Positions 643 through 58,286 of a DNA stretch of 64,000 nucleotides are shown one piece after another. The DNA is taken from assembly GCA_002787095.1 (NCBI GenBank), contig PCVW01000010.1, forward strand, positions 7,774 through 71,773, in the 5' to 3' direction. The translations under genes and the position numbers were made by a program. The notes below the pieces were generated by a model. That model did no database searches and was not told where the DNA came from. It saw only the letters and a program-made list of their open reading frames with translations. This DNA comes from Candidatus Omnitrophica bacterium CG11_big_fil_rev_8_21_14_0_20_64_10. GTDB lineage: Bacteria; Omnitrophota; Gorgyraeia; 1-14-0-20-64-10. Each line of letters starts with the position of its first letter. Positions within the stretch are counted from its first letter, which is position 1.

Positions 643-646
643 CCGA

Positions 647-1708: not shown

Positions 1709-1718
1709 GGAGTTCCCG

Positions 1719-3005: not shown

Positions 3006-3418
3006 TGCTCCGGCGAAACCTTCATCGGGGGGATCCGGACGATGTCCGCTTCGTAGTCCGGCGCGTGGCGGTCGTTGCGGGCCACGACGAACAGGACTGA
3101 ATCCTCGGTGAAGACCATCACATGTTCGAACATCGGCGGCGAGTAGAAGAGGGTTCCCGGGGTGATGATCCACTGCTGGGGCGCCTCGGTGGAGCCGACC
3201 GGCCGGTGGGCGTAGATCATCCGGCCGGAATGGAGCCAGGAGTAGTGGAAATCGGTCTTGTGGTAATGGTTCCCCCGCACCGCCCCCTTCTTGGAATGGA
3301 TCACGAGGGCCGAGCCCAGCGGCAGGTCCACGAGGTTCTGGATCATCCCCCGGTCGTCCCGGAAAGGGGCCGGCAGTTGGACCACGGTTTTCGGATCCAG
3401 TTTCTTTGAAGGGGTCAT
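3002..3418 (-). CDS. WxcM/FdtA-like cupin (putative NDP-4-keto-6-deoxyhexose 3,4-ketoisomerase)
   Basis: 138 aa, small cupin. RGNHYHK resembles the FdtA His-x-His block RGFHAHK; size and context (next to a C-methyltransferase) fit. Confidence 0.55.
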   Translation of the reverse strand: MTPSKKLDPKTVVQLPAPFRDDRGMIQNLVDLPLGSALVIHSKKGAVRGNHYHKTDFHYSWLHSGRMIYAHRPVGSTEAPQQWIITPGTLFYSPPMFEHVMVFTEDSVLFVVARNDRHAPDYEADIVRIPPMKVSPEQ

Positions 3419-41051: not shown

Positions 41052-42937
41052 GCGGGGAGGATCTCCCGATCGATGAAGATCATGTGCCACCACTCCAGGA
41101 TAGCCAAGGCGAAGACCCGCTTCAAGCTCAGGAAATCGTCCGTCGAGGAGTGGGCCAACAGCATTCGGACCGCTTCCCATCGGAAGTAGCCCCGCCGCCG
41201 GACCCGCTGTTCGGTCAAAGTGGTCCCGATCAGCTCCCGCCAGGCGGCGCTCTGCGCGTACCGCTCGAGCGGGACATAGAAGGTCTGCTTCGGCCGGCGG
41301 ACCACGCGGCGGGGCAGCCAGCGGGCCGCCAACCGCCGGGCCGCGATCTTGTCCCGCCAAGCGGTCAGCTTGAGCGTTGTGGGGCAAGCGGCCAGATGTT
41401 CGACGAGGCGGTGATCCAGGAACGGGACCCGTCCCTCGATCCCGACCGCCATCGTCATCCGGTCCAACCGCAGAAGCAGATTGTCCGGCAGCCAATCCCG
41501 ATACTGCAGACGCAGGATCCCTTCAATCGAGTTGATTCCCGGTTCTCCCGCGGCGGCCCCCTCGGCCGGCGCAAGGGCCGGTTCGCAAAGCGCCTGAAGC
41601 TGCTGCGCGTCGAACAGGGAGCGCAGGTGAAGATTCCAGGCGGCCGGGTCGTTCCGTCGGGTGAGCTCAAGGTAATCCAGCAGTTTCCGCTTCCCGCTCT
41701 CCCCGAGGCCGGCCGGATAGCGGAATCCCCGACTCAAGCATTCCGCCGGGAGCCGACGGATCACCGCGGGAGCGATCCGGGTGAGCAGTCCCGGGGTTCG
41801 GCGCCGAAGCCGCAGCGTCCAGAAGAGGACCTGATGGAAGAGATAGCCGCCGAGCACCTCGTCTCCCCCCTCCCCGGTCAGGACCACTTTGACCTGCTTG
41901 GAAGCTTCCCGAGCGAGCAAAAACATCGGCAGAATGATGGCATCCCCCATCGGCTGGTCCAGATTCCAGATCAGCCGGGGGATTTGCTCCAGATCGGCCG
42001 CTTCGCATCGGAGGGTGTGATGGGGAGCGGCCAGCGCGGCGGCGGTCTCGGCGGCCCGGCTCGATTCGTCCCAACGGTCCCCGAACCCGATGCTGAAGGT
42101 GGGGTGGCCGGCCCGCGCTTCCCGGGCAATGGCCGCCAGAATCAGTCCGGAATCCAGCCCGCCGCTGAGGAAGGTGCCGACCGGCCGGTCGCTCATCAGC
42201 CGAAGCCGGACCGCCGTTTCGAACCGGCGCTCAAACTCCTCCTGGTACCGCGCCGCGCCGGCCTGGGACGCCGGTTCCTCCGGCAGGCGCCAGTAAGGCC
42301 GGAGGGTCAGCCGCCCGTTCTCAAACCAGCCGGCATGGGCCGGCGGCACGGAACGGATTCCCTCCAAGAGGGTGTCGGGACCCGGCACATAGCGGTTCCG
42401 CAGATACGGCAGGATTTTGTCCCGGCGGACCGTTCGGGAGACGGCGTCGGCTTCCAGGATCGCCTTGATCTCGGAGCCGAACAACAGCCGGCCGCCCCGT
42501 TCCCAGACATAAAGGGGCTTGATCCCGATCCGGTCCCGGGCCAGGAAGAGGCGGTCCCGTTTCCGGTCATGAATCGCGAAGGCGAACATGCCGTTGAACC
42601 GCTCCAGACAGGCCGGTCCCCATTCGGCAAAGGCCCGAAGGACCGTTTCGGTGTCGCACCGGCTCTGGAAACGGTGTCCCTTCACCCGAAGCTGTTCGGC
42701 GATCTCGGCGTGGTTGTAGATCTCGCCGTTGAACGCGATCCAGAGAGAACCGTCCTCGCTCGAACGGGGTTGGTGCCCCCCTTCCAGGTCCACGATGCTC
42801 AAGCGGCAGGCGGCCAGACCGATTCCCCCGTGGCGGGCCTGCCCCTGCCCGTCCGGCCCTCGATGGGCGATCACCCGGATCATCCGGTCAAGCGGATCGT
42901 TCCCGCTCCAGCCCGAATAGCCGGCGATTCCGCACAT
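41048..42937 (-). CDS. asnB: asparagine synthase (glutamine-hydrolysing) family amidotransferase, copy 2
   Basis: MCGIAGYSGW..., SGGLDSG and AsnB C-terminal blocks. The ATG at 42937-42935 sits in the same TGATG context (cgcacatcag) as copy 1. The 204-aa track extension is rejected. Confidence 0.9.
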   Translation of the reverse strand: MCGIAGYSGWSGNDPLDRMIRVIAHRGPDGQGQARHGGIGLAACRLSIVDLEGGHQPRSSEDGSLWIAFNGEIYNHAEIAEQLRVKGHRFQSRCDTETVLRAFAEWGPACLERFNGMFAFAIHDRKRDRLFLARDRIGIKPLYVWERGGRLLFGSEIKAILEADAVSRTVRRDKILPYLRNRYVPGPDTLLEGIRSVPPAHAGWFENGRLTLRPYWRLPEEPASQAGAARYQEEFERRFETAVRLRLMSDRPVGTFLSGGLDSGLILAAIAREARAGHPTFSIGFGDRWDESSRAAETAAALAAPHHTLRCEAADLEQIPRLIWNLDQPMGDAIILPMFLLAREASKQVKVVLTGEGGDEVLGGYLFHQVLFWTLRLRRRTPGLLTRIAPAVIRRLPAECLSRGFRYPAGLGESGKRKLLDYLELTRRNDPAAWNLHLRSLFDAQQLQALCEPALAPAEGAAAGEPGINSIEGILRLQYRDWLPDNLLLRLDRMTMAVGIEGRVPFLDHRLVEHLAACPTTLKLTAWRDKIAARRLAARWLPRRVVRRPKQTFYVPLERYAQSAAWRELIGTTLTEQRVRRRGYFRWEAVRMLLAHSSTDDFLSLKRVFALAILEWWHMIFIDREILPA

Positions 42938-44670: not shown

Positions 44671-45626
44671 CGACTGCTCCGGGAGGCCACCAATTTCTTC
44701 AAGCCGGTTTCCAGGGAAACCGCCGCCCGAAACCCCAGTGCCCGCTGAGCCGCTTCGGTAGAGCCGACCCGGTGCTGGACGAATGAGACCGCTTCCGATT
44801 GGAAGATCGGCGTGAGGGTGCTTCCGGTCGCCTCCAGCAGCCGCTCCACGAGCTCCCGGATCGTCGTCCGACGACCGGTCCCCACGTTAAACGCTTGATC
44901 GTTTGCCTGAGCCCGGGCGGCCAGCACATTGGCCCGGGCCACATCGGTGACATCCACGAAATCGTAGGATTGGGAGCCGTCCCCGTGAATCACCGGCGCT
45001 TCCCCCCGCTCGATCCGTTCCAGCACCTTCATGATGACGCTGGTGTAGGCCCCCTTGTCGTCCTGGCGGGGACCGTAGACATTCATGTAGCGCAGCGCGG
45101 CGTAGTCGAGTCCGTAGCGGTGGTGGTGGGCCCGGCACATCTGCTCTCCGGCGATCTTCGTGGCCCCGTAGAAGGTGGTGTTGTTCAGGGGATGGCCCTC
45201 CCGCATGGGGAACTCCACCGCGTCGCCATAAACCGACGCGGAAGAGGAGAAGACCAGGCGGGGGGTCCGGTGCTGGACGCAGGCCTGCAGCACATTGAAG
45301 GTCCCCCGGATGTTCACCTCAAACGCCGCTTCCGGGTGTTCCTGGCAGTGCAGCAACCAGAGGGCGGCCAGATGAAAAACGACCTCCCTGCCCCGGAAGG
45401 CCCGGTCCAGCCGGTCGGTCTCCAGGATGCTGGCCTCCTTTTCGAAAACTGAAACCCGGGGGTCCCGAAGGGCCGATTCCAGGTGGGCCGGTTTCCCCCG
45501 GCTGAAGTCGTCGTATACGAGGATCTCGGCCGGGGATTCCCCGAGCAGCGCCTCGACCAGATGGGAACCGATGAAGCCGGCCCCGCCGATCACCAGCAGC
45601 CGTTTGTTCCGGAGCGAGCGGCTCAT
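44667..45626 (-). CDS. NAD-dependent nucleotide-sugar epimerase/dehydratase (SDR)
   Basis: RLLVIGGAGFIGSHLVEAL and catalytic YGATK. ATG at 45626-45624 in an ATGA overlap; the 81-aa track extension is rejected. Confidence 0.85.
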   Translation of the reverse strand: MSRSLRNKRLLVIGGAGFIGSHLVEALLGESPAEILVYDDFSRGKPAHLESALRDPRVSVFEKEASILETDRLDRAFRGREVVFHLAALWLLHCQEHPEAAFEVNIRGTFNVLQACVQHRTPRLVFSSSASVYGDAVEFPMREGHPLNNTTFYGATKIAGEQMCRAHHHRYGLDYAALRYMNVYGPRQDDKGAYTSVIMKVLERIERGEAPVIHGDGSQSYDFVDVTDVARANVLAARAQANDQAFNVGTGRRTTIRELVERLLEATGSTLTPIFQSEAVSFVQHRVGSTEAAQRALGFRAAVSLETGLKKLVASRSSR

Positions 45627-46717
45627 CGCAGTCCCAGGAGGCGCCGCATCCAGCGGTTGGGGGCCGCCTGCAGCAGCCGGGCCAGGCCGCCGATCGCTGG
45701 GGTTTGGGAGATCAGTTCGAGCAATCCGAAGAGCAAGCGCTCTCCCCAGCCCCGCCGAAGGCTCTCGAGCAGGACCCAGGCTTCCTGCACTTCGACCGGA
45801 CTGAGCCGGTAGCTGCCCATGTCGAAGATCGTTTGTCCCCGCCGTTTCCCGGGCCGGCCATGGCGGCACAACTCATAGATCAGGGACCAGAACAGGTAGC
45901 GCCGGACATTCTCCCGAAAACATTTCGCCCGGGCCGCCCCCCGCGGATCAGCCTGTTCGAGGCGGTCCAGGTAGCTCCCGACCGCTGTTTGGAAGTCCCG
46001 CGCCATCTCCAAGATGGAGCGGTCGCTGAGCGCCTCGGAGTGGATGCGATACCGCCAGAGCCGCTCTCCGAGGTGACCGATCGACCAGCGCTCCGCGATC
46101 CGAAACCAGACGATGAAGTCCCCGAAGCCCAGCGGGCTTTCCGGATCGAAACGGATGCCGTTGAGCGCCTCCCGGCGGATCATCGTGCCCGGGCAGTTCA
46201 GGGAGGAGCGGCCGGAACGGGTCGTCTGCGCGACATAGGCGTCCCCCGTCTGCAGCGGCGGGGCCTCGGCTTGCCGAACGGCGACCACCCGATCGGCCTC
46301 ATCGATCAGTTCCCAATCGGAACAGAGCAGCCCGGCTTCCGGATGGGCCTCCATGAAGGCGACATACCGATCGATCATCTCGGGGGTGTACTGCTCGTCA
46401 TCGTGAAACAGGCAGAGGTAGCGGCCTCGGGCCGCTTCCAGACAGGCGTTGTGGTTCGGATAAAGACCGATGTTCTTCGGGTGCCGGAGGAGCCGGATCC
46501 GGCTGTCGCGCGAAGCCCACTCGCTGCAGAGGGCCTGCGTTTCGTCTTCCGAGGCATTGTCGCTGATCAGGATCTCCAGGTTCCGGTAGGTTTGATTCGA
46601 GACCTGCGGCAGCATTCGTTTCAGGAAGCGGGCTCGGTTGAAGGTGGGGATGCCGATCGTGACCAGGGGCGGCTTCAGCCGCCCGGAAGGAGCGCCGGCG
46701 GTCGTTGGAGGGTTCAT
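45623..46717 (-). CDS. family-2 glycosyltransferase
   Basis: LVTIGIPTFNRARFL...ILISDNASEDET...CLFHDDEQY. ATG at 46717-46715 in an ATGA overlap. Confidence 0.8.
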   Translation of the reverse strand: MNPPTTAGAPSGRLKPPLVTIGIPTFNRARFLKRMLPQVSNQTYRNLEILISDNASEDETQALCSEWASRDSRIRLLRHPKNIGLYPNHNACLEAARGRYLCLFHDDEQYTPEMIDRYVAFMEAHPEAGLLCSDWELIDEADRVVAVRQAEAPPLQTGDAYVAQTTRSGRSSLNCPGTMIRREALNGIRFDPESPLGFGDFIVWFRIAERWSIGHLGERLWRYRIHSEALSDRSILEMARDFQTAVGSYLDRLEQADPRGAARAKCFRENVRRYLFWSLIYELCRHGRPGKRRGQTIFDMGSYRLSPVEVQEAWVLLESLRRGWGERLLFGLLELISQTPAIGGLARLLQAAPNRWMRRLLGLR

Positions 46718-47283
46718 GAAGCGGCCGGCGGGGCCGGAAAGGGATAGGTTTGACCGCAATCGGGACAGCGCCAGGCGCCCGGCTTCCCCTCCAGCCGCCG
46801 CCCGCAGCGGCAGACCCATCCGACCGATCGGCCCGGCGCGCCGATCACCAGCCCGTGCTCCGGGACATCCCGGGTCACGACCGCGCCGGCGCCGATCAGC
46901 GCGTAGGCCCCAATCGTGACGCCGCACAGGATGGTCGCGTTGGCGCCGATGGAGGCCCCCCGCCCGACCCGGGTGGCTTGAAATCCGTCCTTCCGCTCGA
47001 TAAAGCTGCGGGGGATCTCGATGTTGGTGAAAACGCAGGCCGGCCCGCAGAAGACCTCCTCCTCCAGGGTGACGCCGCGGTAGACCGACACATTGTTTTG
47101 AATCTTGGTCCGGTCGCCGATCCGGACCCCGTCGGCGACGAAAACATTCTGGCCCAGGATGCAGTCGGACCCGATCACCGCCCCCTGCATGACATGGGTG
47201 AAGTGCCAGATCCGGGTCCCCGCGCCGATCTGCGCGCCGGGATCCACAACCGCGGTCGGATGGACCTGTGCCGCTGCGCTCAT
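46714..47283 (-). CDS. hexapeptide-repeat acetyltransferase (WbpD/PglD-like LbH N-acetyltransferase candidate)
   Basis: Hexapeptide repeats (IGAGTRIWHFTHVMQGAVIGSDCILGQNVFVADGVRIGD...) and a C-terminal Cys4 cluster (CRCG...CPDC). ATG at 47283-47281 in an ATGA overlap. Confidence 0.75.
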   Translation of the reverse strand: MSAAAQVHPTAVVDPGAQIGAGTRIWHFTHVMQGAVIGSDCILGQNVFVADGVRIGDRTKIQNNVSVYRGVTLEEEVFCGPACVFTNIEIPRSFIERKDGFQATRVGRGASIGANATILCGVTIGAYALIGAGAVVTRDVPEHGLVIGAPGRSVGWVCRCGRRLEGKPGAWRCPDCGQTYPFPAPPAAS

Positions 47284-48314
47284 GCGGCGGCGATCGCCTC
47301 CTCCGCTCCCGCCCGGTCGAGGGAGCGCTGGGCCGCCTCCAGAACCCGGATCACCTGAAGCCCTTCCTGGCCGCCGCTTCGGGGCGTTTGCCCGCTCCGG
47401 ATGCAGCCGAGGAAATGAGCGCATTCGATCCGGAGCGGTTCAACCGCCGGCAGCCGGGGGGCCTGAATCTCTCCGAAACGGAGGGTCAGGGCGTCGACCG
47501 TCCCGGCGCCCGGAATCGGCTCGCTGACCCCCTTGTCGTAGATGCGCAGTTTTTCGGCCGGTTCCATGTCGTCGAAGACCGCCATCTTCCGCCGCCCGAC
47601 GAGGGTCAGCCGCCGGATCTTGTTCGGATCCAGCCAGCTCAGATGGAGTTGGGCCATTCGGCCGGACGCAAAGGAGAGCCAGACGAAGACCACATCGACG
47701 ACCCCGTCCCGCAGAAAGGAATGTCCGAAGGCCTGCACCCGGACCGGGGATTCTCCGAGCAGGTGGAGGGCCATCGAAACATCGTGTGGTCCGAAACACC
47801 AGAGGGCGTTCTCATCGGTTCGAATCGTCCCCAGGTTGACCCGCTGCGAGTAGAGATACAGGATCTCCCCCAGTTCTCCGGCCCGGACGAGGGTCCGGAG
47901 CCGTTCGATCGCCGGGTGGTAAAGCATCAAATGGCCGACCATCAGGAGCCGGCCGGTCCGCTCGGCCAATTCGACCGTCGCTTCGGCGTCGGACAGATTC
48001 AGCGCCAACGGTTTTTCGACGAAGACCGCCTTGCCCCGGTTCAGCGCCGCCTGCGCCAGCGAAGCGTGCGCGCCGGCGTGGGAAGCGATCACGATCCCTT
48101 CGATGGTCCGGTCGTCCAGCAGGGTCTCCGCCTCGCCGGTCAGCCGCAGTTGGGGGGCCCGCCTCCGAAAAGGGGTCAGCCGCTCGGGCCGTTGATCGCA
48201 GAGGGCGACCACCTCGGCCCCTTCTATCTCCAGGAGGGTTCGGGCAATGTTGCTTCCCCAGGGGCCCAGCCCCACGCAGCCGATCCGGACGGTCCGGGCC
48301 GATTCAGGCGGCAT
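47280..48314 (-). CDS. Gfo/Idh/MocA-family oxidoreductase (WbpB-like NDP-sugar dehydrogenase candidate)
   Basis: VRIGCVGLGPWGSNIARTL...AVFVEKPLALNL; ATG at 48314-48312. Confidence 0.85.
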   Translation of the reverse strand: MPPESARTVRIGCVGLGPWGSNIARTLLEIEGAEVVALCDQRPERLTPFRRRAPQLRLTGEAETLLDDRTIEGIVIASHAGAHASLAQAALNRGKAVFVEKPLALNLSDAEATVELAERTGRLLMVGHLMLYHPAIERLRTLVRAGELGEILYLYSQRVNLGTIRTDENALWCFGPHDVSMALHLLGESPVRVQAFGHSFLRDGVVDVVFVWLSFASGRMAQLHLSWLDPNKIRRLTLVGRRKMAVFDDMEPAEKLRIYDKGVSEPIPGAGTVDALTLRFGEIQAPRLPAVEPLRIECAHFLGCIRSGQTPRSGGQEGLQVIRVLEAAQRSLDRAGAEEAIAAA

Positions 48315-49200
48315 CGCGGCCCTGCTCCCATTCGAACAGCGCGGTCAGGCCGGCCTCCAGATTCCGAAATGGGGGCACGCTGGCTTGGCGGAGTTTCCGG
48401 CAATCCATCCGGACCTGAAGGGGCCGGGCGGCCCGCTGCTTAAGTTCAACGGTCTTCAACGGTTTCAGCAAGTTGAGGTCCAAGTTAAAGCGGCGACAGA
48501 CCTGTTCCGAGAGGGTTCTCCGATCGACGAAATCGGGTCCCGCCGCGTGAAAGATTCCCGTATCCCCTTGTTGGAGTAAGAATTGCGTTGCTTTTGCGAC
48601 ATCCTCAGTATAGGTGGGGGTCCCCCATTGGTCAATGGGGATCGAGGCCGGCTCCCCCGCCCGCAGCCGATCCACCAGCCGAAGGATGAAGTTTTTTCGG
48701 ACCGGGTCCGGTCCGAACAGCCAGGCGGTCCGGAGGATCAGATGCCGGTCCGGCAGGAGCGTTCGGATCGCGGCCTCCCCATCCGCTTTGGAGCGGGCAT
48801 ACTGATTGAGCGGAATGATCGGATCGGTTTCCCGATAGGGTTCCCCCTTCCGGCCGTTAAAGAGGTAGTCGGTTGAAAAATAAACCAAACGCTTCAGCCG
48901 GTCCCGGCCGGCTTCGGCAATGCGCCGGGGGGTGCCGGCGTTGATCTGATGACAAACAGTCGGCTCCGATTCGGCGCCGTCCACATTGCAATAGGCCCCC
49001 GCGATCAGGATCTGATCGGGACGCAGCATTTTGACGGCCCGAACGGCTCCCTCCGGGTCCCGCAGGTCGATGGGGTGCTGACCCGGCGCCCGGTGATGGC
49101 AGGCCGATTCCAGGACCTCCTCTCCGGCCGCCCGCAGCAGCCGGACCAGTTGCCGGCCCAATTGGCCGGAGGCGCCGATGACCAGCGAACGCCCCGGCAT
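48304..49200 (-). CDS. RmlD-like NDP-4-keto-6-deoxyhexose reductase (dTDP-4-dehydrorhamnose reductase family)
   Basis: LVIGASGQLGRQL...YFSTDYLFNG...PLNQYARSK (YxxxK). ATG at 49200-49198 in a TGATG overlap. Confidence 0.75.
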   Translation of the reverse strand: MPGRSLVIGASGQLGRQLVRLLRAAGEEVLESACHHRAPGQHPIDLRDPEGAVRAVKMLRPDQILIAGAYCNVDGAESEPTVCHQINAGTPRRIAEAGRDRLKRLVYFSTDYLFNGRKGEPYRETDPIIPLNQYARSKADGEAAIRTLLPDRHLILRTAWLFGPDPVRKNFILRLVDRLRAGEPASIPIDQWGTPTYTEDVAKATQFLLQQGDTGIFHAAGPDFVDRRTLSEQVCRRFNLDLNLLKPLKTVELKQRAARPLQVRMDCRKLRQASVPPFRNLEAGLTALFEWEQGRDAA

Positions 49201-50438
49201 CAGATCACCCGGGGAGCGGGAATCGGGATCAGGAACCGGCCTCCTCCGGCCCGGAAGGATTCCATCTGCCGAACGATCTCCTCCTGAAAGTTCCAGGCCA
49301 GAATCACCAGATGGGTGATGCCGTTCGGATTCCAGCCTTCGGGAGAGCGGACCGGCAGATGGGTTCCGGGGGTCCATAGTCCCTGCTTGTGGGGCGAGCG
49401 GTCCAGCACACAGACCAGCCGGGCGGCCGCTTCGGGGCAGAAATTGAGGAGGGTGTTCGCCTTGGCTGCCGCCCCGTAGCCGGCCAGCCGCCCGCCCGAC
49501 TCGGCGATCCTCTGAACCAGCGATTCAAACCTTCCCTTCCAGCGCCGGACGCGGCCCGCGAAACGATTGAAGGCGGCCGGATCGGTCAGTTTGAGTTTCC
49601 TTTCCGCCGCCAGCAGGGTCTTGAGATTCGAAGTGGGACGGCCGCTCCCTTTGCGCTGCAGGGTCATCAGGATCGACCCGCCGTGCAGCGCCACCGGCTC
49701 CGCCTCGATCAATTGGAAGCCGGTCATCTCGGCCAACCGGGCGATCGGCGCCAGGGCGATATAGGAGAGGTGCTCATGGTAGATCGTGTCGAATTCGTCC
49801 GCTTCCAGCAAGTTCTTCAGGTACGGCACCTCGATCAGGAGGACCCCATCCGGGGTCAGAAAATGGTCGGCGGCGGCCATGAAATCGTGCCAGTCGTCGA
49901 TGTGGGCAAAAACATGGCGTCCCAGCAGGACCCGGGCCTGCTTCCCTTTTTCCTTCCCGGAGAGGATCTTCCGGACCGTTTTGGCGCAGAAGAATTCCGA
50001 GACCGTCGGAACGCCTCGGGCCTGCGCGATCCGGGCCAGGTTCCGGGCCGGCTCGATCCCCAGCACCTGGGTCCCGAGCCCCTGAAAGGCCTTCAGGATC
50101 AGGCCGTCGTTGCTCCCCAATTCGGCGACCCGGTCCTCCGGGCCCAACCGATAGCGGGCGCAGATGCGGGCCGCCAGCGTGCTGGCGTAGACCCGGACCG
50201 CGTCGGAGGTGGAGGAGACATACAGGTAATTGCGGTACAGCTGCTCCGGAGGAACTGTTTCGGTCAGCTGGACCAGTCCGCAATCGGGACAGCCGGCAAC
50301 CGCCAGCGGGAAACGGGGCTCCTTCTTGAAATCGGATCGGTTCTTGAGAAAGGCATTGGCCAACGACATCGGTCCCAGATCCAGGAACGGTTCGGGGAGT
50401 TGGGTTTGGCAGATGCGGCAACGGGTATGGGCAGACAC
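49200..50438 (-). CDS. NDP-hexose C-methyltransferase (TylC3/NovU family), copy 2
   Basis: Zinc ribbon CRICQT...LANAFL...CPDC; ELGSNDG motif I; C-terminal C-methyltransferase domain (LAWNFQEEI). GTG start at 50438-50436. Confidence 0.8.
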   Translation of the reverse strand: MSAHTRCRICQTQLPEPFLDLGPMSLANAFLKNRSDFKKEPRFPLAVAGCPDCGLVQLTETVPPEQLYRNYLYVSSTSDAVRVYASTLAARICARYRLGPEDRVAELGSNDGLILKAFQGLGTQVLGIEPARNLARIAQARGVPTVSEFFCAKTVRKILSGKEKGKQARVLLGRHVFAHIDDWHDFMAAADHFLTPDGVLLIEVPYLKNLLEADEFDTIYHEHLSYIALAPIARLAEMTGFQLIEAEPVALHGGSILMTLQRKGSGRPTSNLKTLLAAERKLKLTDPAAFNRFAGRVRRWKGRFESLVQRIAESGGRLAGYGAAAKANTLLNFCPEAAARLVCVLDRSPHKQGLWTPGTHLPVRSPEGWNPNGITHLVILAWNFQEEIVRQMESFRAGGGRFLIPIPAPRVI

Positions 50439-50446
50439 GGATCGGC

Positions 50447-50896
50447 TCAGCGGTGCTGGATCCGCCAGTCGTACGGGATTGCGCCGCTCGCCGGATCGAG
50501 GCGCTCGATCTCATCCGGATCATGGGGAATCGTCGCGCAGTTGGCCACGATCGCCGGGGTCGTTCCCATCCCCTTGAAGCCGTTCCAGATGAAGGGGGGG
50601 ACCTGCACCAGCTGGTATTGGGACTCCCCGAGGAAGACCTCCTGGATCTCCCCGCGGCTCCTGGAGTCGGGCCGGTCGTCGTACAGCGCCAGCTTGATCA
50701 TCCCGACCGGCACCGCGTAGTTGATCGTCATCCGGGAATGTTTGTGCCATCCCTTGACGACCCCGGGATAGACGGAGGAGAAATAAATTTCCCCGAATTT
50801 CTCAAAATGGGGATCGGTCGCCTTCAGCATGTGCATGACCCGGCCCCGTTCGTCCGGGATCACCTTGAGCGGGATGATCCGCACCCCCTCGATCAT
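50447..50896 (-). CDS. RmlC-like cupin (NDP-4-keto-6-deoxyhexose 3,5-epimerase family)
   Basis: [18 protein letters not shown]...KGWHKH, an RmlC-type fold. ATG at 50896-50894 in an ATGA overlap. Confidence 0.7.
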
Positions 50897-51930
50897 CGGG
50901 TCTCCCGGGCCTCGCTGGCCGATTCCTCGGCGGCGAAGAAGCGTTCGTACCAGGTGATCGTGCGGCGCATCCCCTGCTCCAGCGAGAAGAGCGGTTCCCA
51001 ACCGAGCCGCTTCCGGGCTTTTTCGGCGTCCAAATACTGATGGGGAATCTCGTGCGTCGCCTCGTTGCGGATGTCGAGGGAGAGGTCGCGGCGGTCCATC
51101 CATCGAGCGATTTGCTCCGCGATTTCCAGGACCGACAGCGGCTGCTCGTTGCTGAAGTTGAAGGCCTCCCCCGCCAGCGCGCGGTCCTGAATCAGATGCT
51201 GGGCGAGCGTCAGGTACGCGGCCGCCCCGTCTTCAACGTAAAAATAGTCCCGGGTCATCGTGCCGTCCGATCGGATCACCGGACGCTCCCCGCGGATCAG
51301 GGAGCGGATCGTTCCGGGAACGATCCGGTTCCAGTTCAGGTCTCCGCCCCCGTAAAGGTTGCCGCAGCGGGCGATCGCGACCGGCAGCTTCCAGGTGGCC
51401 GCGTAGCTTTGCGCGATCAGGTCGGCGCAGGACTTGCTGACATCGTAGGGATGCCGGCCGGCCATCGGAGCGTCTTCCCGGTAAGGCAGTCCGCTCTGTT
51501 CCCCGTAGGCTTTGTCGGAAGAAGCCAGGACGATCCCTTCGATCCGGGGGGAGCGCCGGGCCGCTTCCAGCAGGGACCAGGAGCCCCGAATGTTGCTCTC
51601 GAAGGTGGAGACGGGGTTCCGGTTGGCGATCGGGACGATGGTTTGGGCCGCCAGATGAAAGACCGCGCTGACCTCGTACTCCCCCAGGACCCGCTCCATC
51701 AAGGGTTGGTCCTGGAGCTGCCCGCGGACCACCCGAACCCGGTCCAGAAGCCCCTCCCGAACCAGCGGGCTTTGCGGCACCCAATCCCGGATCAGCGCCA
51801 CGACATCGGCGCCGGCTTCCAGCAGGCGCCGGACCAGCCACCCCCCCTGCAGGCCGGCCCCGCCGGTCACGAGGACCGAACGGTCCCGCCAGAAGGTTTT
51901 GGAAGAAGGGGTCGGGGCGGCCGGCGGCAT
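50893..51930 (-). CDS. rfbG: CDP-glucose 4,6-dehydratase-like SDR
   Basis: [20 protein letters not shown] (compare FWxGKxVFVTGHTGFKGSWL), SDKAYG, YDVSK and [10 protein letters not shown]...RIVP blocks typical of RfbG/DdhB. ATG at 51930-51928. Confidence 0.8.
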
Positions 51931-51933
51931 CGT

Positions 51934-52767
51934 TCAATCCGGAAAGTGGCTCAGCCCGATCGGCTTGAAGGCGACACAGAACAGTTCCTCTGAAAGATAG
52001 TTTCGGATTCCCCACGCCTCGGTGGAGAGGAACTCCATCAACGCGCCGTCGCCGAAGCGGCGCAGCGGCGCGTAATAAAAGCGGTAGTTGAGAAAGCCGG
52101 CCGACAGCAGCGTTCGGGTGAGGCGCCGTTTCGTCGTCAGCCCGATGTGCTGGGGATCGTCCGAACCGGGCCCCTGGGAGATGCAGTAGCGCATCGGGTT
52201 CTGAAAACGCAGGAGCCCCCGCAGCCGTTTGAACCCAAGGGCCAGCTCGAGATACGCGAGGTTCGGCGTCTTGATCACCAGCGGCGCGCCGGGCTTGAGG
52301 ACCCGCAGCGCCTCCTGAAAGGCGGGAAGCTTCTCGGCGTCGGTGATGTGTTCCAGGAAATCGCCGGAGATGGCCGCGTCGAAATGGTTGTCCGGGAAGT
52401 CCAGTTTCCGGACATCGGCGCAGCGGGCCTCCCCGGTGATCCCGAACCGCCTGAGGTTCCCGTTGGCCTTCTCGACCTGCTTGGGATCCAGGTCGGCCCC
52501 GTAAACGGCCGCTCCCTGGAGGCCGCAATAGATCATCATCGCGCCGTCGGCGCAGCCCATGTCGAAGATCTGCTGTCCCGGCCGGGGATTCAGCAGATGG
52601 AGGGCGAAATCCTTGAGCCGGAGGAAATCCAGGTTCTTGCGGCACTTCCCGTGCTTGTGGTCGGCCCCCCGAACATCGGTGTCGTTGAGATAGAAGTAGC
52701 CCTTCAGCCAGCCGTCTTCCGGATAGCGGTCCCGGGGGGGCGGAGGGTTCAGCAGGGTACCCGGCAT
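51934..52767 (-). CDS. class I SAM-dependent methyltransferase (MT7)
   Basis: IFDMGCADGAMM motif I; ATG at 52767-52765. Confidence 0.75.
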   Translation of the reverse strand: MPGTLLNPPPPRDRYPEDGWLKGYFYLNDTDVRGADHKHGKCRKNLDFLRLKDFALHLLNPRPGQQIFDMGCADGAMMIYCGLQGAAVYGADLDPKQVEKANGNLRRFGITGEARCADVRKLDFPDNHFDAAISGDFLEHITDAEKLPAFQEALRVLKPGAPLVIKTPNLAYLELALGFKRLRGLLRFQNPMRYCISQGPGSDDPQHIGLTTKRRLTRTLLSAGFLNYRFYYAPLRRFGDGALMEFLSTEAWGIRNYLSEELFCVAFKPIGLSHFPD

Positions 52768-52768
52768 C

Positions 52769-53562
52769 TCAGCGCCACCGTTTCCAGGGAGCCCGCCCCG
52801 AGTCCCACAGATCGTTCAGCAGCTTGTATTCCCGGTAGGTGTCCATCGGCTGCCAGAAGCCGGTATGGGGATAAACCATCAGCTCTCCGTCCTGGGCCAG
52901 CCGCTGCAGCGGCTCCCGCTCCAGGACCAGGTCGGCGTCCGGCCGGATGTAGTCGGTCAGGAAGCGGCGGTTGAAAACGAAGAATCCGCCGTTGATCATT
53001 CCCTGCGTGGTCTGGGGTTTCTCATTGAATTGAACGACCCGTCCGTCGGCGCTCATCTCCATCTCGCCGAACCGGCCGGGCGGCCGGACCCCCGTGACGG
53101 TCGCGGTCTTGCCGTGCCGGCGGTGGAACGCCAGCAGGGCGGCCAGGTCGATGTCCCCCAGGCCGTCCCCGTAGGTCAGGCAGAAGGTCTCCTCTTGGAG
53201 ATACGACCCTCCCCGTCCCACCCGGCCTCCGGTCTGGGTGTTCAGGCCGGTCTCAACGAGGGTGACCTCCCAATTCTCCTCCGGGGGATTGCCGTGGTAA
53301 ACCGGCGGTTTCCCGTCCCCGAGGGTCAGCGTCATGTCTGACTGATGGGACCGGTAATTCAGAAAGAACTCCCGAATCACCTGCCCCTTGTACCCCAGGC
53401 AGAGGACGAACCGGGTCCATCCGAAGCTGGCGTACAGCTTCATGATGTGCCAGAGAATCGGCCGTCCTCCGATCTCCAGCATCGGTTTGGGCCGGAACTC
53501 CGTCTCTTCGTGCAGGCGGCTGCCGAGCCCCCCGCAAAGAATCATAACAGCTGGTTTGGACA
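52769..53562 (-). CDS. rfbF: glucose-1-phosphate cytidylyltransferase
   Basis: MSKPAVMILCGGLGSRLHEETEFRPKPMLEIGGRPILWHIMKLY...TYGDG...ATVTGVRPPGRFG...MINGGFFVF...GFWQPMDT is near-collinear with RfbF/DdhA. ATG checked at about 53562. Confidence 0.9.
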
Positions 53563-54750
53563 TGATTTGGCGCTTTCGATGAGCTGCCGGTAGACAGACT
53601 GGTATTTTCTCACACCTTGCCCCAAATCGAAACAGGACTCTGCGGCCCGCCGGCAGCGGGCCCAGAGCGTTTCCCCTTCCGCCAGCAGGGCCAGCAGCTC
53701 TCGGGCGGCCCGGTTCAGAGCGGCCTCCGAGCAGTCGGAGAGGACCACCCCCACCCGCCCTTCCCCGATCAGGCGGTCGCAGTCGCCGATCCCGGCGGTC
53801 ACCACGACCGGCAGGCCGCAGGCGAGGGATTCCCCGATTTTGGTGGGGCAGGAAGCCGTTTTGGAGGAGACCGGCCGAATCAGGCAGAGGGAGGCGTCCG
53901 CGCCGGCCAGCGCGCCGGCCACCTGATCGTGCGAGAGGATCCGCACCGTCACCGCGCTTGAGTCCAGACCGGCGATCGCCGTTTCGATCTGCGGGTCCGG
54001 ACGGGGAGAGAGGATCTCCCATCGGGTGTCCGGCCGAAGTCGTCGGACCGCCCGAAAGAAATCGGCCATTTCCGGCAGCAGGTAGGCTCCCCCCGCCGAT
54101 CCGGCATAGACCAGCCGCAGGGGCCCGCCGGCCCGTTTTTGAGCGGGCCTAAAACGCTCCAGGTCGGCGCAGGTCGGAATCACGGTGATTGGCCGGCGGA
54201 TCCCTTCGGTTTGAAACCGCTGCTCCAGGATCTCCCGGCTGCGATCGGTGAGGGTCACGATGTGATCGGCCGCTTCGAAAAAGCGCCGTTCCAGCCGCTT
54301 CGTGATCCGATAGAGCCAGCCGCCGGCTTTCCAGAATCCCCCCTCCACCTTCTCGTCGGGCCAGAAGCCTCGGATGTCGAACAGGAACTTCGACTCAAAC
54401 GGCCGCTTGAGCCAAAGGGCCAAGAGGGCGGCCACATAACTGCGGGCATGCAGAACTTCCGGCGGCCGGTTCCGGCAAGCCCGCCGGACCGTCCACCAGC
54501 CGGCCGCCAGATCCCAGACCGTCGACCCGATCGGGGGCCGCCGATGGTACCGAAGCCGAATCCAGCGGATTCCGGCCTCCCGCAAACGGCGCTCCAAGGA
54601 TTCCGCCTCCGGTTCCCTGCCCGGTTTCTCGAAGCTCACAACGGTCCATCTCCGATCAGGGCCGGTCAGGCGGAACAGATAGGGGAGAATCTGCGACTGG
54701 CCCAACGGATCCAGCAATCCGTCGTAAGAGAGATAAAGCAACCGGGTCAT
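53542..54750 (-). CDS. family-4 glycosyltransferase
   Basis: MTRLLYLSYDGLLDPLGQSQ..., then RLVYAGSAGGAY...KIGESLACGLPVVV. ATG at 54750-54748 in an ATGA overlap; the large track extension is rejected. Confidence 0.8.
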   Translation of the reverse strand: MTRLLYLSYDGLLDPLGQSQILPYLFRLTGPDRRWTVVSFEKPGREPEAESLERRLREAGIRWIRLRYHRRPPIGSTVWDLAAGWWTVRRACRNRPPEVLHARSYVAALLALWLKRPFESKFLFDIRGFWPDEKVEGGFWKAGGWLYRITKRLERRFFEAADHIVTLTDRSREILEQRFQTEGIRRPITVIPTCADLERFRPAQKRAGGPLRLVYAGSAGGAYLLPEMADFFRAVRRLRPDTRWEILSPRPDPQIETAIAGLDSSAVTVRILSHDQVAGALAGADASLCLIRPVSSKTASCPTKIGESLACGLPVVVTAGIGDCDRLIGEGRVGVVLSDCSEAALNRAARELLALLAEGETLWARCRRAAESCFDLGQGVRKYQSVYRQLIESAKSCPNQLL

Positions 54751-56177
54751 CCGTTCAGCGATCGATGGGGAGCCGGCACTGTCGCCGCAGCGGCCGCCGG
54801 GTCTCTCGGAAGCCCGATCATCACCAAAAAGAAGAGCAAGGGCCAGAGAGCGGAACGGTGGCGGAAGAGGGTCCCGACGTTCCCCTCCAGCAAAGCGATC
54901 ATCGTCAGGAAGACGGCGGAGGTGATCGGAATCAAAATCAGTCGGGGGGGGCCATTGCAGCTGCGCCAGAATCCCCGAAAGAGGAAAAAAAGCATCGGGT
55001 ACCAGAGAAGCATCTCCAGCGATCCGGCCAGCTCCCTGGCGGAACGGGCCAGCCACGGGGCCGGCAGGATCAGGGCGGACAGGAGCCCCATCGGAAGGAA
55101 GCCGAGCACCTTTCGCCAACTGTCGATGCGGTATGCCTCGAGGAACGGGGTCTCCGCCTCCATCATCCGGACCCGCCGCAGGTATTCGATCCGTTCGGCA
55201 AGCTGGTCCGGATTCACCGCCAACTCGGCCGCCGGCCGGCCAAACAGCCAGCGGTCCAGCTGCCGGCCGACGCCCGCAGCAACCGATTGAACAGGTCCGT
55301 TCGACCAAAGAAGAAGGGCCGAGAGGCACAAGACACCGGATATCGCCAAGGCCGTCCGGCTTTTCAGCAGCAGCCGCAAGAAAAGATAGCAGCCGAAGGA
55401 GAAAAGCAGCAGAGGGCCGATGAACATGTTGAATTGCTGCAGCAGCCCCATGAACAGCGCGCCGAGCGGCCAGCCCCACCATCGGTTCCTCCCACGGGCC
55501 AGGAGAAAACAGCAGATTCCGGCCAGCACCAGAAAAAGGGAGACCGGTTCCTTGAGGTTCTGCGTCGACCAAAGAAAGAGAGAGGGCCAAAAGGCGGTCA
55601 GGAGGGCCGTCCATCGGGCCTGCCGCTCCGGAAGGAATCGCCGGGCGAGCCAGTAGCTCAAGAGGGCCGACCAGGCGCCGAACAGACAGTTGACAAAGAA
55701 AAGATTCAGCGGATGGTATCCCCCCAGGTAGGTCAGCCAGCCGTTCCACCAGTCGAAGGAGGTCGCCGCCTTCGACATGCTGAAATCCCGCAGCATGGCG
55801 GCGTCCGGAAAGATTCCCCGCCGCCAGTTCTCCGCCAGCCAGTAGCCGTTGTGGGCGTAGACATAACCGTCTCCGACCAGGAAACCGCCGTTTTGAAATT
55901 CGCCGGCCGGACCGGAAATCCAATGGCGGGAACCGGTGCAGTAGAAAAGAAGGGAGGCGAGGACCCGAAGCCCCAGGGCGGCGCCGAAGAGCTTCGGAGA
56001 CCAGGCATCGGAATCGACCCGGCGAATGAGGCCGAAGGAAATCACCGCCAGCGTCGCCAGCCCGATCCAGCCGATCCGGAGGGCCGGCGCGCTGATCCCG
56101 ATCAGCAGAATCAGGAGCAGAAGGGCCGGGATCGCCCGCCGGGCGGCCGGCGGAAGGCTAACCTTTGTCGGGTTCAA
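54747..56177 (-). CDS. polytopic membrane protein, GT-C-like (PMT/ArnT-type) glycosyltransferase candidate
   Basis: About 12 TM segments; first periplasmic loop GDGYVYAHNGYW; large hydrophilic loops. TTG start at 56177-56175 is the only in-frame start. Confidence 0.5.
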   Translation of the reverse strand: MNPTKVSLPPAARRAIPALLLLILLIGISAPALRIGWIGLATLAVISFGLIRRVDSDAWSPKLFGAALGLRVLASLLFYCTGSRHWISGPAGEFQNGGFLVGDGYVYAHNGYWLAENWRRGIFPDAAMLRDFSMSKAATSFDWWNGWLTYLGGYHPLNLFFVNCLFGAWSALLSYWLARRFLPERQARWTALLTAFWPSLFLWSTQNLKEPVSLFLVLAGICCFLLARGRNRWWGWPLGALFMGLLQQFNMFIGPLLLFSFGCYLFLRLLLKSRTALAISGVLCLSALLLWSNGPVQSVAAGVGRQLDRWLFGRPAAELAVNPDQLAERIEYLRRVRMMEAETPFLEAYRIDSWRKVLGFLPMGLLSALILPAPWLARSARELAGSLEMLLWYPMLFFLFRGFWRSCNGPPRLILIPITSAVFLTMIALLEGNVGTLFRHRSALWPLLFFLVMIGLPRDPAAAAATVPAPHRSLNG

Positions 56178-57480
56178 GAGGTTCCATCTTGGAGATGGTT
56201 CCGTTGAGCTGCGCCCTTTTCGTGATCAACGGGATCTCCTGTCCAATCCGGTCTTTTTCCGGATTCATCAGCAGTTCGGCGACGACCTTCAGATCGAAGC
56301 GGCCGTCCGTTTGGCGCAGGCGCAGCGCCCCGTCCGGAGATCCCTCCACGACGAAGAGATTGGCCGGGGGTTTCGATTCGACCGAGATGATTTTCCCAAT
56401 AATGGGGAACTCTCCGGCAAACGGCCAGCCGCCCATCGGACCCAAGATGGCATCCTCGGGATGAATGGCTTCAACCAGATAGCAGGGCAGGTCCGCGGCA
56501 TGCAGCGTCACCCGCCACGGCCGTAGGGAAACGACCCTTTCCTCGCCCACCGTCTCCTGCTGCTCCTGTTTCGGCGCAACAGAAGTCACCTGAACCGTCC
56601 GCTCCGAGAAATCAACCACCTCCCCCGAAAAGGCGTATTCGTCGCTCTCCAGGGAGAGGGGCTGTCCGGCGATCAGCGGTTTCCCTTCGTAATAGATCCG
56701 GTTCGCCCCCTGGTGGGCGTTCAAGGCGATCCAAATGTCCACCCGGGAGAGCCGGTCCCTGCTGGCGGGGGTGATCCGCAGCAGTCCCTGTTCGTTGATC
56801 GGATAGGCCAGCAGCTGCTGAGATTCCTCGGAACCGTTCTCCGGGATCAGGGCCCCTCCGATCAGGCGTCCCACAGGGCTTCCGGACTTGTTGTAAAGTT
56901 TGTCCCCCTCGCTCATCCGCCTGACGATCTCCGGGATCAAGTCCACGCTTCTGAGTCGAATGTAAACCTCAACCGGTTTTCCGGACAGGATGACGCCGGA
57001 GACGCTGTAAACCGGTTTTCCCTGCTCCGTCTTCTGGAAAGAGATCTCTCTGTGTTGGGCCACCGGCTGTCGGCGGAAAAGAAAATCTCCCTCCTGCTCG
57101 AAGGTGCCGTGGAGGCGCAGTTTGACGAGGACCTCATAGCGGGGATCCTGAAAACGGATCAGGGCGGACAATCCTCCCCCCAGGGAAGCCTGTTCCGGGA
57201 GGGGGCGGGTGGAAAGGATCTCCAGCAGTTCGGCGACCATCCGGCCGGCGGGATCCGACTCGCTGTCTCCGGCCTTCAGCCGGTCCATCTGCGCCCGGGT
57301 CATCGGGTGGAGGCGGACATAAACCTCCATCGAGTCCTCCACCTGCCAGGGGACCATTGGGATCTGCGGGACGATCAGCAGCCGGTAGCTGGAAACCGCC
57401 AGGACCATCAGGACCGCCACACCCAGTGTGACGCCCCAGGTTTCCCATCGCCTGGGCCGCGGGGAAGTCGGATCGCTCAT
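56158..57480 (-). CDS. hypothetical exported/periplasmic protein with N-terminal signal anchor
   Basis: A single N-terminal TM (WGVTLGVAVLMVLAV); the remaining ~400 aa have no recognised family. ATG at 57480-57478 in an ATGA overlap; TAG stop at 56160-56158. Confidence 0.4.
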   Translation of the reverse strand: MSDPTSPRPRRWETWGVTLGVAVLMVLAVSSYRLLIVPQIPMVPWQVEDSMEVYVRLHPMTRAQMDRLKAGDSESDPAGRMVAELLEILSTRPLPEQASLGGGLSALIRFQDPRYEVLVKLRLHGTFEQEGDFLFRRQPVAQHREISFQKTEQGKPVYSVSGVILSGKPVEVYIRLRSVDLIPEIVRRMSEGDKLYNKSGSPVGRLIGGALIPENGSEESQQLLAYPINEQGLLRITPASRDRLSRVDIWIALNAHQGANRIYYEGKPLIAGQPLSLESDEYAFSGEVVDFSERTVQVTSVAPKQEQQETVGEERVVSLRPWRVTLHAADLPCYLVEAIHPEDAILGPMGGWPFAGEFPIIGKIISVESKPPANLFVVEGSPDGALRLRQTDGRFDLKVVAELLMNPEKDRIGQEIPLITKRAQLNGTISKMEPLEPDKG

Positions 57481-58286
57481 CTGCCAGCTCCTTTGTCGGT
57501 TGATTTTGTTCCGACCGCGAAAAAATTCAGGCGGAACGGAAAACTCAAGAACAGGCGCCGCACCTCAAACGGGCCCTGCAGCAGCCGCCGCAGGGTGCCG
57601 GCGCTGAACAACTGGATGTGTCCCATCGCCAGGTCGTCGCTGAGCGGACCCAGGAAACCGCGCAGCCCCAGCCGCTTCAGCATCGTCTTGATCGCCACAA
57701 TCCATCGGTCGTTGGGAACGGAGACGACCAGCCGGCCGCCCGGCGCCAGCACCCGGGCCAGCTCTCCGACCGCTTCTTCCGGCCGCTCCAAATGCTCCAG
57801 CACCTCGGTGCAGAAGATCAGGTCGAGCGAGCCGTCCCGGAACGGCAGCCGGGTCACATTGGCGGCCATCGCCGGAATCGCGGCCGCCGAACCGTTTTTC
57901 CGGCGATTCTCCCGAAGCATCCCCGAATCCAAATCGGCCAGCAGCGACAGACCGGATCCGCCGAGCCGCCGGGCGGTCACCTGCCCTGACTCGCACCCGA
58001 TGTCCAGAATCCTTCGGGCGGGACAATCCCCCAGCCGTTCGGTGATCCGGAACCGCTGCCGTTCGACCCATCGGATCAGCGGATTGGGATGGGCCGATTT
58101 CTGCGCCATCGGATGCGCCCGATTGACCGCCTGATTCCATTCGGCGACGGAAACCGGCTGGTCGTTCTTGAAAAGGAGAAAGCGGCCCCGCGCGTCATCC
58201 CAACGCTTGAGGAAACGGTCCGAACCGACGCGGTAAAGGTGTTCCCCTTCGTTCCAGCTCACGATTGGGACTCCCGTTGGGCCCAT
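57477..58286 (-). CDS. class I SAM-dependent methyltransferase (MT8)
   Basis: ILDIGCESGQV motif I; ATG at 58286-58284. Confidence 0.75.
   Translation of the reverse strand: MGPTGVPIVSWNEGEHLYRVGSDRFLKRWDDARGRFLLFKNDQPVSVAEWNQAVNRAHPMAQKSAHPNPLIRWVERQRFRITERLGDCPARRILDIGCESGQVTARRLGGSGLSLLADLDSGMLRENRRKNGSAAAIPAMAANVTRLPFRDGSLDLIFCTEVLEHLERPEEAVGELARVLAPGGRLVVSVPNDRWIVAIKTMLKRLGLRGFLGPLSDDLAMGHIQLFSAGTLRRLLQGPFEVRRLFLSFPFRLNFFAVGTKSTDKGAGR

Follow-up and report, generated by a model that had tools for sequence, protein, structure and literature searches.

Six adjacent genes on contig PCVW01000010.1 of Candidatus Omnitrophica bacterium CG11_big_fil_rev_8_21_14_0_20_64_10 probably constitute one polycistronic nucleotide-sugar module, which would supply a cytidine diphosphate (CDP)-activated 6-deoxy-3-C-methylhexose for a surface glycan. 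They encode a glucose-1-phosphate cytidylyltransferase (RfbF), a class-I S-adenosylmethionine (SAM) methyltransferase (MT1), a divergent, RfbG-like member of the short-chain dehydrogenases/reductases (SDR), a small RmlC-like cupin, a TylC3-type nucleoside diphosphate (NDP)-hexose C-methyltransferase (C-MT) and an RmlD-like 4-ketoreductase, and they lie in a stretch of 64,000 nucleotides (nt), referred to as the window, to which all coordinates apply unless a homologous contig is named. A preliminary description of this DNA had proposed a seven-enzyme pathway for a CDP-linked, C-methyl-branched deoxysugar of unusual design. Judged by homology, its central interpretation is sound, but the pathway does not comprise seven enzymes, and the pairing of CDP activation with C-methylation is common rather than odd. 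The enzyme families, their catalytic residues, the CDP-type character of the first two steps and the gene order are all supported by homology.

The cassette and its enzymes

Seven minus-strand genes, the six mentioned above plus one for a Gfo/Idh/MocA oxidoreductase, occupy positions 47280-53563 contiguously, either overlapping or almost abutting each other, and the third-position GC content is 0.79-0.85 in the frame of each of the seven open reading frames (ORFs). The preliminary description had located these genes correctly apart from the cytidylyltransferase ORF, which spans 52769-53563 and whose earlier end at 53562 is one base short and out of frame; the domain families that it had predicted are borne out by Pfam and NCBIfam profile matches far beyond chance. 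A gap of 1 nt separates the rfbF gene from that of MT1 (51934..52767), and 3 nt lie between the latter and the SDR gene (50893..51930). The SDR and cupin (50447..50896) genes share an ATGA overlap, 8 nt precede the GTG start of the C-MT gene (49200..50438), which in turn shares a TGATG overlap with the reductase gene (48304..49200), and the reductase gene overlaps the Gfo gene (47280-48314) by 11 nt. At the other end, a minus-strand gene for a GT4-type glycosyltransferase (53542..54750; Glyco_trans_4_4/Glyco_trans_1_4) overlaps the start of rfbF by 22 nt. Promoter- or terminator-like sites in the region 44-56 kb showed no excess over the shuffled expectation, which together with the gene junctions would fit a single transcript with translational coupling.

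The first two enzymes point to a CDP scaffold. RfbF (264 amino acids (aa), RfbF/DdhA type) exceeds the cutoff of the TIGR02623 equivalog model (347 versus 300 bits) and aligns over its full length (residues 6-263) with the glucose-1-phosphate cytidylyltransferase of S. typhi (1tzf; E=3.5e-87). It is the only nucleotidyltransferase found, both among the approximately 50 genes predicted for the window and in a further 9 kb past its low end, and neither RmlA nor RmlB was found in the 64-kb window. RfbF orthologues (63-71% identical) head the same cassette in L001, L083, L084 and L096 (homologue contigs and genome loci carry labels beginning with L, proteins with P), where orthologues of the SDR (65-73% identical) directly follow them; SDR orthologues also precede the C-MT in L090 and in L087, whose cassette includes RfbF. 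The SDR of the window (345 aa, RfbG/DdhB-like) scores 222 bits with TIGR02622, below the cutoff of 278, yet this is its top model, the one for dTDP (deoxythymidine diphosphate)-glucose dehydratase giving 170 bits. Its best matches in the PDB are the CDP-glucose 4,6-dehydratases 1rkx and 1wvg of Yersinia and Salmonella (E~1e-45). CDP-type dehydratases, as known from the structures of these two genera, carry (S/T)-D-K where dTDP enzymes have T-D-E, together with a YxxxK motif, and the SSDKAYG and YDVSK of the SDR align to TSDKCYD and YSNSK, respectively, in 1rkx and 1wvg. The SDR is therefore predicted to be CDP-glucose 4,6-dehydratase-like.

With the GTG start, the C-MT has 412 aa and comprises the domains PF08421 (residues 7-68), PF13489 (94-245) and PF08484 (251-407). 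It matches the structures of MtmC (4rv9; E=4e-101), KijD1 (E=6e-78) and TcaB9 (E=2e-73). The zinc cysteines C7, C10, C50 and C53, the SAM motif ELGSNDG and the catalytic motif Y220-H-E222-H223 do not vary among 24 homologues and agree with MtmC, whose FDTIYHEHLSY motif is identical to that of the C-MT. These intact features argue for a TylC3-type enzyme and against an inactive paralogue lacking SAM binding, which the preliminary description had named as a possible objection. All three solved relatives are dTDP-dependent 3-C-methyltransferases, and by analogy with them the methyl branch would be added beside the 4-keto group, most likely at C-3; the sole pointer to a CDP-linked substrate is the genomic linkage to RfbF described below. 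In their source annotation the homologues are called 'NovU/D-mycarose 3-C-methyltransferase', which does not tell the two activities apart. The public gene call (P0001, 389 aa) begins at Met24, 23 codons late, and drops the first cysteine pair. Since translation from the GTG at 50438 brings back the first Cys-x-x-Cys of the zinc domain and PF08421 matches from residue 7, the deposited annotation is probably truncated at the N-terminus. A 551-aa protein from a 2-kb metagenome contig (P0095) was considered as a fusion of cupin and C-MT and rejected, as its cupin part stops at about residue 108 and is followed by non-homologous sequence; it is probably a frameshift, gene-call or assembly artefact and counts as adjacency only.

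The cupin (149 aa) barely passes PF00908 (30.4 bits, cutoff 27) and has the RmlC cupin fold. Its family is tightly conserved, with 70-79% identity among the 120 best matches. His51, which is invariant, lines up with the histidine in the RGLH of 2b9u and 6ndr, the catalytic histidine of RmlC (His63 in S. enterica numbering). The catalytic tyrosine of RmlC (Tyr133), which reprotonates the enolate, aligns in a confident part of the alignment (FAYKCTD in 6ndr, IVANCAT in the cupin) to the nearly invariant Ala118. The earlier label '3,5-epimerase' is therefore withdrawn; its RmlC-like part, based on PF00908 and the catalytic histidine, stands. With PF05523, the FdtA/QdtA family, the cupin stays below the gathering threshold, and it is 19% identical to WbcA, its closest characterised structural relative; tyrosine-less 149-aa cupins of this kind are represented by the structural-genomics entry 3ejk. 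Taken together, the protein is probably an RmlC-fold epimerase-like enzyme (mono- or di-) of CDP-4-keto-6-deoxyhexose, and not a canonical 3,5-epimerase.

The predicted NAD(P)H-dependent 4-ketoreductase (298 aa) scores 212 bits with PF04321 (RmlD_sub_bind; cutoff 27) and falls narrowly below the cutoff of TIGR01214 (218 versus 224). It matches the RmlD structures 1kbz and 3sc6 (E 1e-28 to 1e-29) and has STDY and YxxxK motifs, in agreement with its earlier designation as RmlD-like, and orthologues with 49-52% identity come after the C-MT in L001, L083 and L084. MT1 (277 aa; Methyltransf_11, 68 bits) belongs to a small family with 268 relatives at E<=1e-10. Seven genomic contexts of MT1 homologues were examined, and in four of them (the window, L086, L087 and L090) a C-MT/cupin/reductase module lies within 5 kb. 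A structural model and fold search gave generic class-I methyltransferase matches only and are silent on the substrate. From its context, MT1 may be an accessory O-methyltransferase of the sugar or glycan, and the further O-methylation suggested in the preliminary description is likewise no more than a possibility drawn from gene context.

Synteny and distribution

The gene order RfbF-SDR-cupin-C-MT-reductase-GT2 is found in three other contigs (L001, L083 and L084), one of Planctomycetales and two carrying proteins named Omnitrophica. Across these contigs the five pathway enzymes are 49-77% identical to those of the window, and the GT2 glycosyltransferase 44-48%. Two insertions set the window apart from this template, MT1 between RfbF and SDR, and the Gfo gene plus an acetyltransferase gene between reductase and GT2. 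The most conserved part is the RfbF-SDR-cupin triad (approximately 70% identity), which in L096 is paired with a different tailoring set, an SDR and an RmlD-DegT fusion, and with no C-MT. This fusion protein, encoded at 8416-10578 of L096 downstream of the triad, has 720 aa with RmlD substrate-binding and DegT aminotransferase domains; it is possible that the arrangement represents a CDP-amino-sugar variant of the same core.

The conserved unit appears to reach beyond the region covered by the preliminary description to the GT2 gene (45623..46759, minus strand; PF00535; start at 46759 TTG or 46717 ATG), orthologues of which directly follow the reductase gene in L001, L083 and L084. The GT2 is a candidate transferase for the product, a link that is suggestive only, since orthologues also occur in L096 and in L085, where there is no C-MT within 7 kb. 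The GT4 enzyme is an alternative candidate and a conserved upstream neighbour, with orthologues (38-49% identical) directly upstream of RfbF in L001 and beside MT1 homologues in L085 and L086.

The C-MT family is very large, as more than 7,800 of 8,000 scored candidates match at E<=1e-30. We surveyed the 80 best C-MT loci, taking one genome per species, and counted neighbours within 6 kb, with at least 45% identity as the threshold for RfbF orthologues. The loci span Acidobacteriota, Planctomycetota, Nitrospirota, Proteobacteria, Chloroflexota, Verrucomicrobiota, Patescibacteria, cyanobacteria, actinomycetes and one archaeon of the Methanomassiliicoccales. An RfbF orthologue accompanies the C-MT in 51 of the 80 loci, the commonest configuration sampled; the cupin is present in 12, the RmlD-like enzyme in seven, and all five genes in a single one (L003). 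RfbF linkage also clusters on a rough neighbour-joining (NJ) tree of the C-MTs, where nearest neighbours agree in 67 of 75 cases (47 expected), a value reached by 0 of 2000 permutations. The preliminary description had suggested a phylogenetic placement of the C-MT, and in this tree the enzyme groups with the RfbF-linked C-MTs of L003, L083 and L084, which belong to Omnitrophota/Planctomycetota cassettes.

Similar genes are already annotated in cultured alphaproteobacteria. Sinorhizobium meliloti pSymB carries SMb21416-21418, annotated as ddhA, ddhB and NDP-hexose 3-C-methyltransferase. A plasmid of Methylocystis sp. MJC1 has the order rfbF-rfbG-C-MT-rfbC-reductase-GT2; in Methylocystis and in S. 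meliloti strain Ak57 the Prokaryotic Genome Annotation Pipeline (PGAP) names the C-MT merely 'class I SAM-dependent methyltransferase'. These annotations and the frequency of RfbF in the survey contradict the earlier assumption of an unusual design. In the literature searched for CDP or cytidylyltransferase together with C-methyltransferase, the S. meliloti gene table was the only match. The cassette type is thus widespread and already annotated, whereas work on the recombinant enzymes seems to be lacking.

The Gfo gene (GFO_IDH_MocA, 84 bits) and the gene of the hexapeptide (LbH) acetyltransferase, which together span 46714-48314 between reductase and GT2, have a different distribution. Gfo is found near the C-MT in only three of the 80 loci and does not adjoin the orthologous cassettes of L001, L083 and L084. 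In L088, orthologues of Gfo (45%) and of the acetyltransferase (59%) form one fused 528-aa protein whose neighbours are an SDR and a DegT aminotransferase but no C-MT, and the best named relatives of Gfo are UDP-N-acetylglucosamine (UDP-GlcNAc) 3-dehydrogenases. Besides these two genes, the window encodes a DegT protein (34578-35798), a second acetyltransferase (34003-34581) and a WecB 2-epimerase (59208-60365). The economical reading is that all five would belong to a separate Wbp/Wlb-type acetamido-sugar module, part of which was inserted into the cassette. Because of the conserved gene order without Gfo and the fusion in L088, Gfo is probably outside the CDP-sugar pathway, of which it had been taken to be the seventh enzyme.

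Proposed pathway and competing interpretations

As cytidylyltransferase, CDP-type dehydratase, C-MT, RmlC-fold enzyme and 4-ketoreductase are encoded together, a CDP-6-deoxy-C-methylhexose is the best-supported product. RfbF would convert glucose-1-phosphate and CTP to CDP-D-glucose, which the SDR would oxidise and dehydrate to CDP-4-keto-6-deoxy-D-glucose. The C-MT would then deprotonate this intermediate beside the 4-keto group and transfer the methyl group of SAM, most likely to C-3. The cupin would invert one or two of the stereocentres flanking the ketone; as C-3 would be quaternary after methylation, C-5 would be the sole centre left to it, as in mycarose biosynthesis. Reduction at C-4 by the RmlD-like enzyme would yield CDP-6-deoxy-3-C-methylhexose, MT1 may O-methylate it either as nucleotide sugar or after transfer, and the neighbouring GT2 or GT4 would incorporate the sugar into the surface glycan. 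What is said here on the order of methylation and epimerisation, on C-3 as the methylated position, on stereochemistry, on the part played by MT1 and on the acceptor is inferred only.

Several points weigh against this model. The SDR and the reductase both stay just below the curated equivalog cutoffs (TIGR02622 and TIGR01214), and the cupin is without the catalytic tyrosine of RmlC and also weak on the FdtA ketoisomerase model. It moreover occurs with RfbF and SDR but without C-MT in L096, and alone in L095. On the NJ tree, the nearest sister group of the C-MT consists of actinomycete C-MTs with no RfbF nearby. Three of the seven MT1 contexts have no C-MT in the vicinity, namely the glycan clusters L085 and L088 and the unrelated L089, and L085 is otherwise syntenic with the window, minus the five CDP-pathway genes. 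Finally, the literature searched contained no biochemical data on any member of the cassette. On account of its occurrence in L096 and L095, the cupin seems to be independent of a methylated substrate, and its step may come before or after methylation.

Another course of the pathway, which we consider unlikely, would resemble noviose biosynthesis, with the cupin acting first as a 3-epimerase and the C-MT methylating C-5, so that the reductase would form a CDP-5-C-methyl (gem-dimethyl) 6-deoxyhexose for O-methylation by MT1. Every solved relative of the C-MT methylates C-3, even if the annotation of its homologues covers both activities. The existence of the highly conserved triad without C-MT in L096 would imply that the cupin accepts an unmethylated 4-keto sugar, and WbcA is its closest characterised structural relative, but a 5- or 3,5-epimerase with tolerance for either substrate would fit just as well; a 3-epimerisation ahead of 3-C-methylation would be stereochemically redundant, which is in favour of the noviose-like order. 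The missing tyrosine could also be explained if the cupin were a 3,4-ketoisomerase of the FdtA/QdtA type, which would form CDP-3-keto-6-deoxyhexose for methylation at C-2 or C-4 and reduction at C-3 by the RmlD-like enzyme. The invariant W-H-x-H of the cupin resembles the H-x-H of ketoisomerases, 32 of 33 members of its family have FdtA matches, all of them sub-threshold, and the DegT fusion following the triad in L096 is a pairing typical of FdtA/FdtB pathways. We nevertheless hold this route to be very unlikely, and both it and the noviose-like one match the gene content less well than the proposed 3-C-methylation.

The cassette might instead unite enzymes of separate pathways, RfbF, SDR and cupin making a CDP-6-deoxyhexose while C-MT and reductase use a dTDP- or GDP-sugar (GDP, guanosine diphosphate) from elsewhere in the genome. 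This would account for the triad without C-MT, for the actinomycete sister clade and for the reductase being nearest to dTDP-dependent enzymes; given the conserved gene order with its translationally coupled junctions, the lack of RmlA, RmlB or any other nucleotidyltransferase in the 64 kb and the company of RfbF and C-MTs across phyla, it is extremely unlikely. Little credence can be given, too, to the seven-enzyme version of the preliminary description, in which the CDP-sugar would be a substrate of Gfo as well, which might, for instance, oxidise one of the ring hydroxyls to permit further tailoring. The Gfo gene does overlap the reductase gene, the second C-MT of the window likewise precedes an SDR and a Gfo paralogue, and a similar cupin-C-MT-...-Gfo arrangement is present in the Prochlorococcus locus L072, but the rarity of Gfo near C-MTs, its fusion partner and surroundings in L088 and its UDP-GlcNAc 3-dehydrogenase relatives all argue otherwise, and the tertiary alcohol of a 3-C-methyl sugar is not oxidisable at C-3.

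The second C-MT belongs to another branched-sugar module at positions 1-3418, which continues past the window edge (11067-12053 of L094). It comprises a cupin-like protein of 138 aa with an RGNHYH motif (3002-3418), the second TylC3-type C-MT (1719-3005; 39% identity with the first), an SDR (647-1708) and the Gfo/Idh/MocA paralogue, whose gene is incomplete at the edge of the window. For this module, no further nucleotidyltransferase was found. Its gene order recurs in the Prochlorococcus locus L072 and partly in L041, and its C-MT lies in a clade not linked to RfbF.

Glycan context and relation to known pathways

The cassette is embedded in one long lipopolysaccharide (LPS)-type glycan island of roughly 64 kb, which emerges from Pfam and NCBIfam scans of approximately 50 predicted genes and confirms the earlier assignment to a surface-glycan operon. 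The whole window has 64-68% GC, nearly all genes are on the minus strand, and housekeeping genes begin just past the low end of the window, where the island ends. It encodes GT9 heptosyltransferases (7871-9957), Wzy_C/O-antigen-ligase-like proteins (9932-11209 and 19311-20615), a WecA-like initiating transferase (11206-13074), a Wzx-like protein (27404-28840) and many GT2, GT4 and GT-C (PMT_2) transferases. Three of the last are PMT_2/ArnT-like membrane proteins (54747-56177, 60305-61993 and 61995-63323), adjoined by small GT2s (58259-59230 and 63263-63970) that resemble polyprenyl-phosphate sugar synthases (ArnC/AglJ/PpgS-like); this pairing points to periplasmic transfer from lipid-phosphate-sugar donors. 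The density of methylation genes is unusually high, with seven class-I methyltransferases plus the two C-methyltransferases and two radical SAM proteins, one B12-binding and the other of the radical SAM/SPASM type (examples at 3424-4326, 20616-21803, 23787-24617, 26268-27716, 33107-34006, 51934-52767, 57477-58286, 37435-39027 and 30184-31353), which suggests a heavily methylated surface glycan. Two AsnB-like glutamine amidotransferases (41048-42937 and 31275-33191), homologues of which also flank related cassettes in L001, L083 and L085, may amidate a uronic acid or similar residue. Large proteins of 440-588 aa (35738-37435, 24532-26298, 22273-23898 and 56158-57480) have no or only sub-threshold Pfam matches; the one at 56158-57480 has a sub-threshold match to DUF4330, and its orthologue in L085 is likewise located upstream of PMT_2/GT4 genes.

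The enzyme logic of the cassette has several known counterparts. dTDP-L-mycarose is formed with the C-3 methyltransferase TylC3/EryBIII, the 5-epimerase TylK/EryBVII and the 4-ketoreductase TylC2/EryBIV. In this pathway and that of MtmC (mithramycin), the same three tailoring families act on an NDP-4-keto-6-deoxyhexose. The window differs in its CDP carrier, in the lack of 2,3-dehydratase and 3-ketoreductase genes, so that the 2-hydroxyl group would be kept, in its 149-aa cupin without the RmlC tyrosine and in the location in an LPS-type island instead of a polyketide cluster. In dTDP-L-noviose biosynthesis the epimerase NovW, the C-5 methyltransferase NovU, the reductase NovS and the O-methyltransferase NovP are employed. 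As predicted for the cassette, epimerase, C-methyltransferase, 4-reductase and O-methyltransferase operate directly on the 4-keto-6-deoxyhexose with no 2-deoxygenation, but the carrier is dTDP, methylation takes place at C-5, and NovP is of the TylF class whereas MT1 is of the Methyltransf_11 class. No C-methyltransferase takes part in the synthesis of CDP-6-deoxy-D-gulose in Yersinia enterocolitica O:8 (DdhA, DdhB, WbcA and WbcB), and WbcA is the distant relative of the cupin mentioned above. WbcA, like NovW, is known as a 3-epimerase acting on a 4-keto-6-deoxy sugar, partly from a table in PMC9095892.

The S. meliloti and Methylocystis cassettes share gene logic and order with the window (RfbF 50-54% and C-MT 36-39% identical), but have a canonical RfbG, which is 31-34% identical to the window SDR, no MT1, and a full-length rfbC (dTDP-4-dehydrorhamnose 3,5-epimerase according to PGAP) in place of the 149-aa cupin. 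In Coxiella burnetii, the TylC3-like CBU_0691 is associated with the LPS sugar virenose (6-deoxy-3-C-methyl-D-gulose), the pathway having been modelled in silico only (PMC3539893). Here, too, the 3-C-methyl-6-deoxyhexose of an O-antigen is made with a TylC3-type C-MT, whereas the proposed carrier is GDP or dTDP rather than CDP (PMC3539893). The CDP-3,6-dideoxyhexose pathway (RfbF, RfbG, RfbH/E1 and RfbI/E3, leading to abequose, tyvelose and ascarylose) has its first two steps and the CDP carrier in common with the cassette, but the window lacks E1 and E3 genes and has a C-methylation branch instead of 3-deoxygenation. With 169 bits, the only DegT-family protein of the window stays below the cutoff for RfbH, which is 423.

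A closer precedent at the level of the product, and only there, is CDP-vinelose (6-deoxy-3-C-methyl-2-O-methyl-L-talose), which was reportedly obtained from Azotobacter vinelandii by Okuda, Suzuki and Suzuki (J Biol Chem, 1967-68). It is a CDP-linked, 3-C-methylated and O-methylated 6-deoxy-L-hexose, and its formal synthesis from CDP-glucose would correspond to the six encoded activities. A. vinelandii is not among the 80 best C-MT loci surveyed. The literature searched yielded nothing on vinelose, and to our knowledge genes for CDP-vinelose have never been assigned. We advance as a speculation, more doubtful than probable, that CDP-vinelose-type sugars, or CDP-6-deoxy-3-C-methyl-(2-O-methyl)-L-hexoses, have their genetic basis in this cassette family, and that the cupin represents a distinct RmlC-fold epimerase subclass without the tyrosine acid. 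If this were true, methyl-branched CDP-sugars would be common in the surface glycans of many bacterial phyla and some archaea.

The cassette is no new kind of system, as the logic of epimerase, C-MT and reductase is known and similar cassettes are blandly annotated in many genomes. C-methyl-branched deoxysugars are a textbook feature of antibiotics, and nearly all knowledge of the enzymes concerned comes from the dTDP-sugars of actinomycetes. For TylC3-type methyltransferases outside the actinomycetes, the commonest genomic partner is a cytidylyltransferase, which implies a large pool of predicted CDP-dependent branched-sugar pathways in environmental bacteria. As a test case for CDP-dependent C-methylation, for the tyrosine-less cupin and, possibly, for the genes of vinelose, the cassette described here has the merit of being compact and complete and of conserved synteny.

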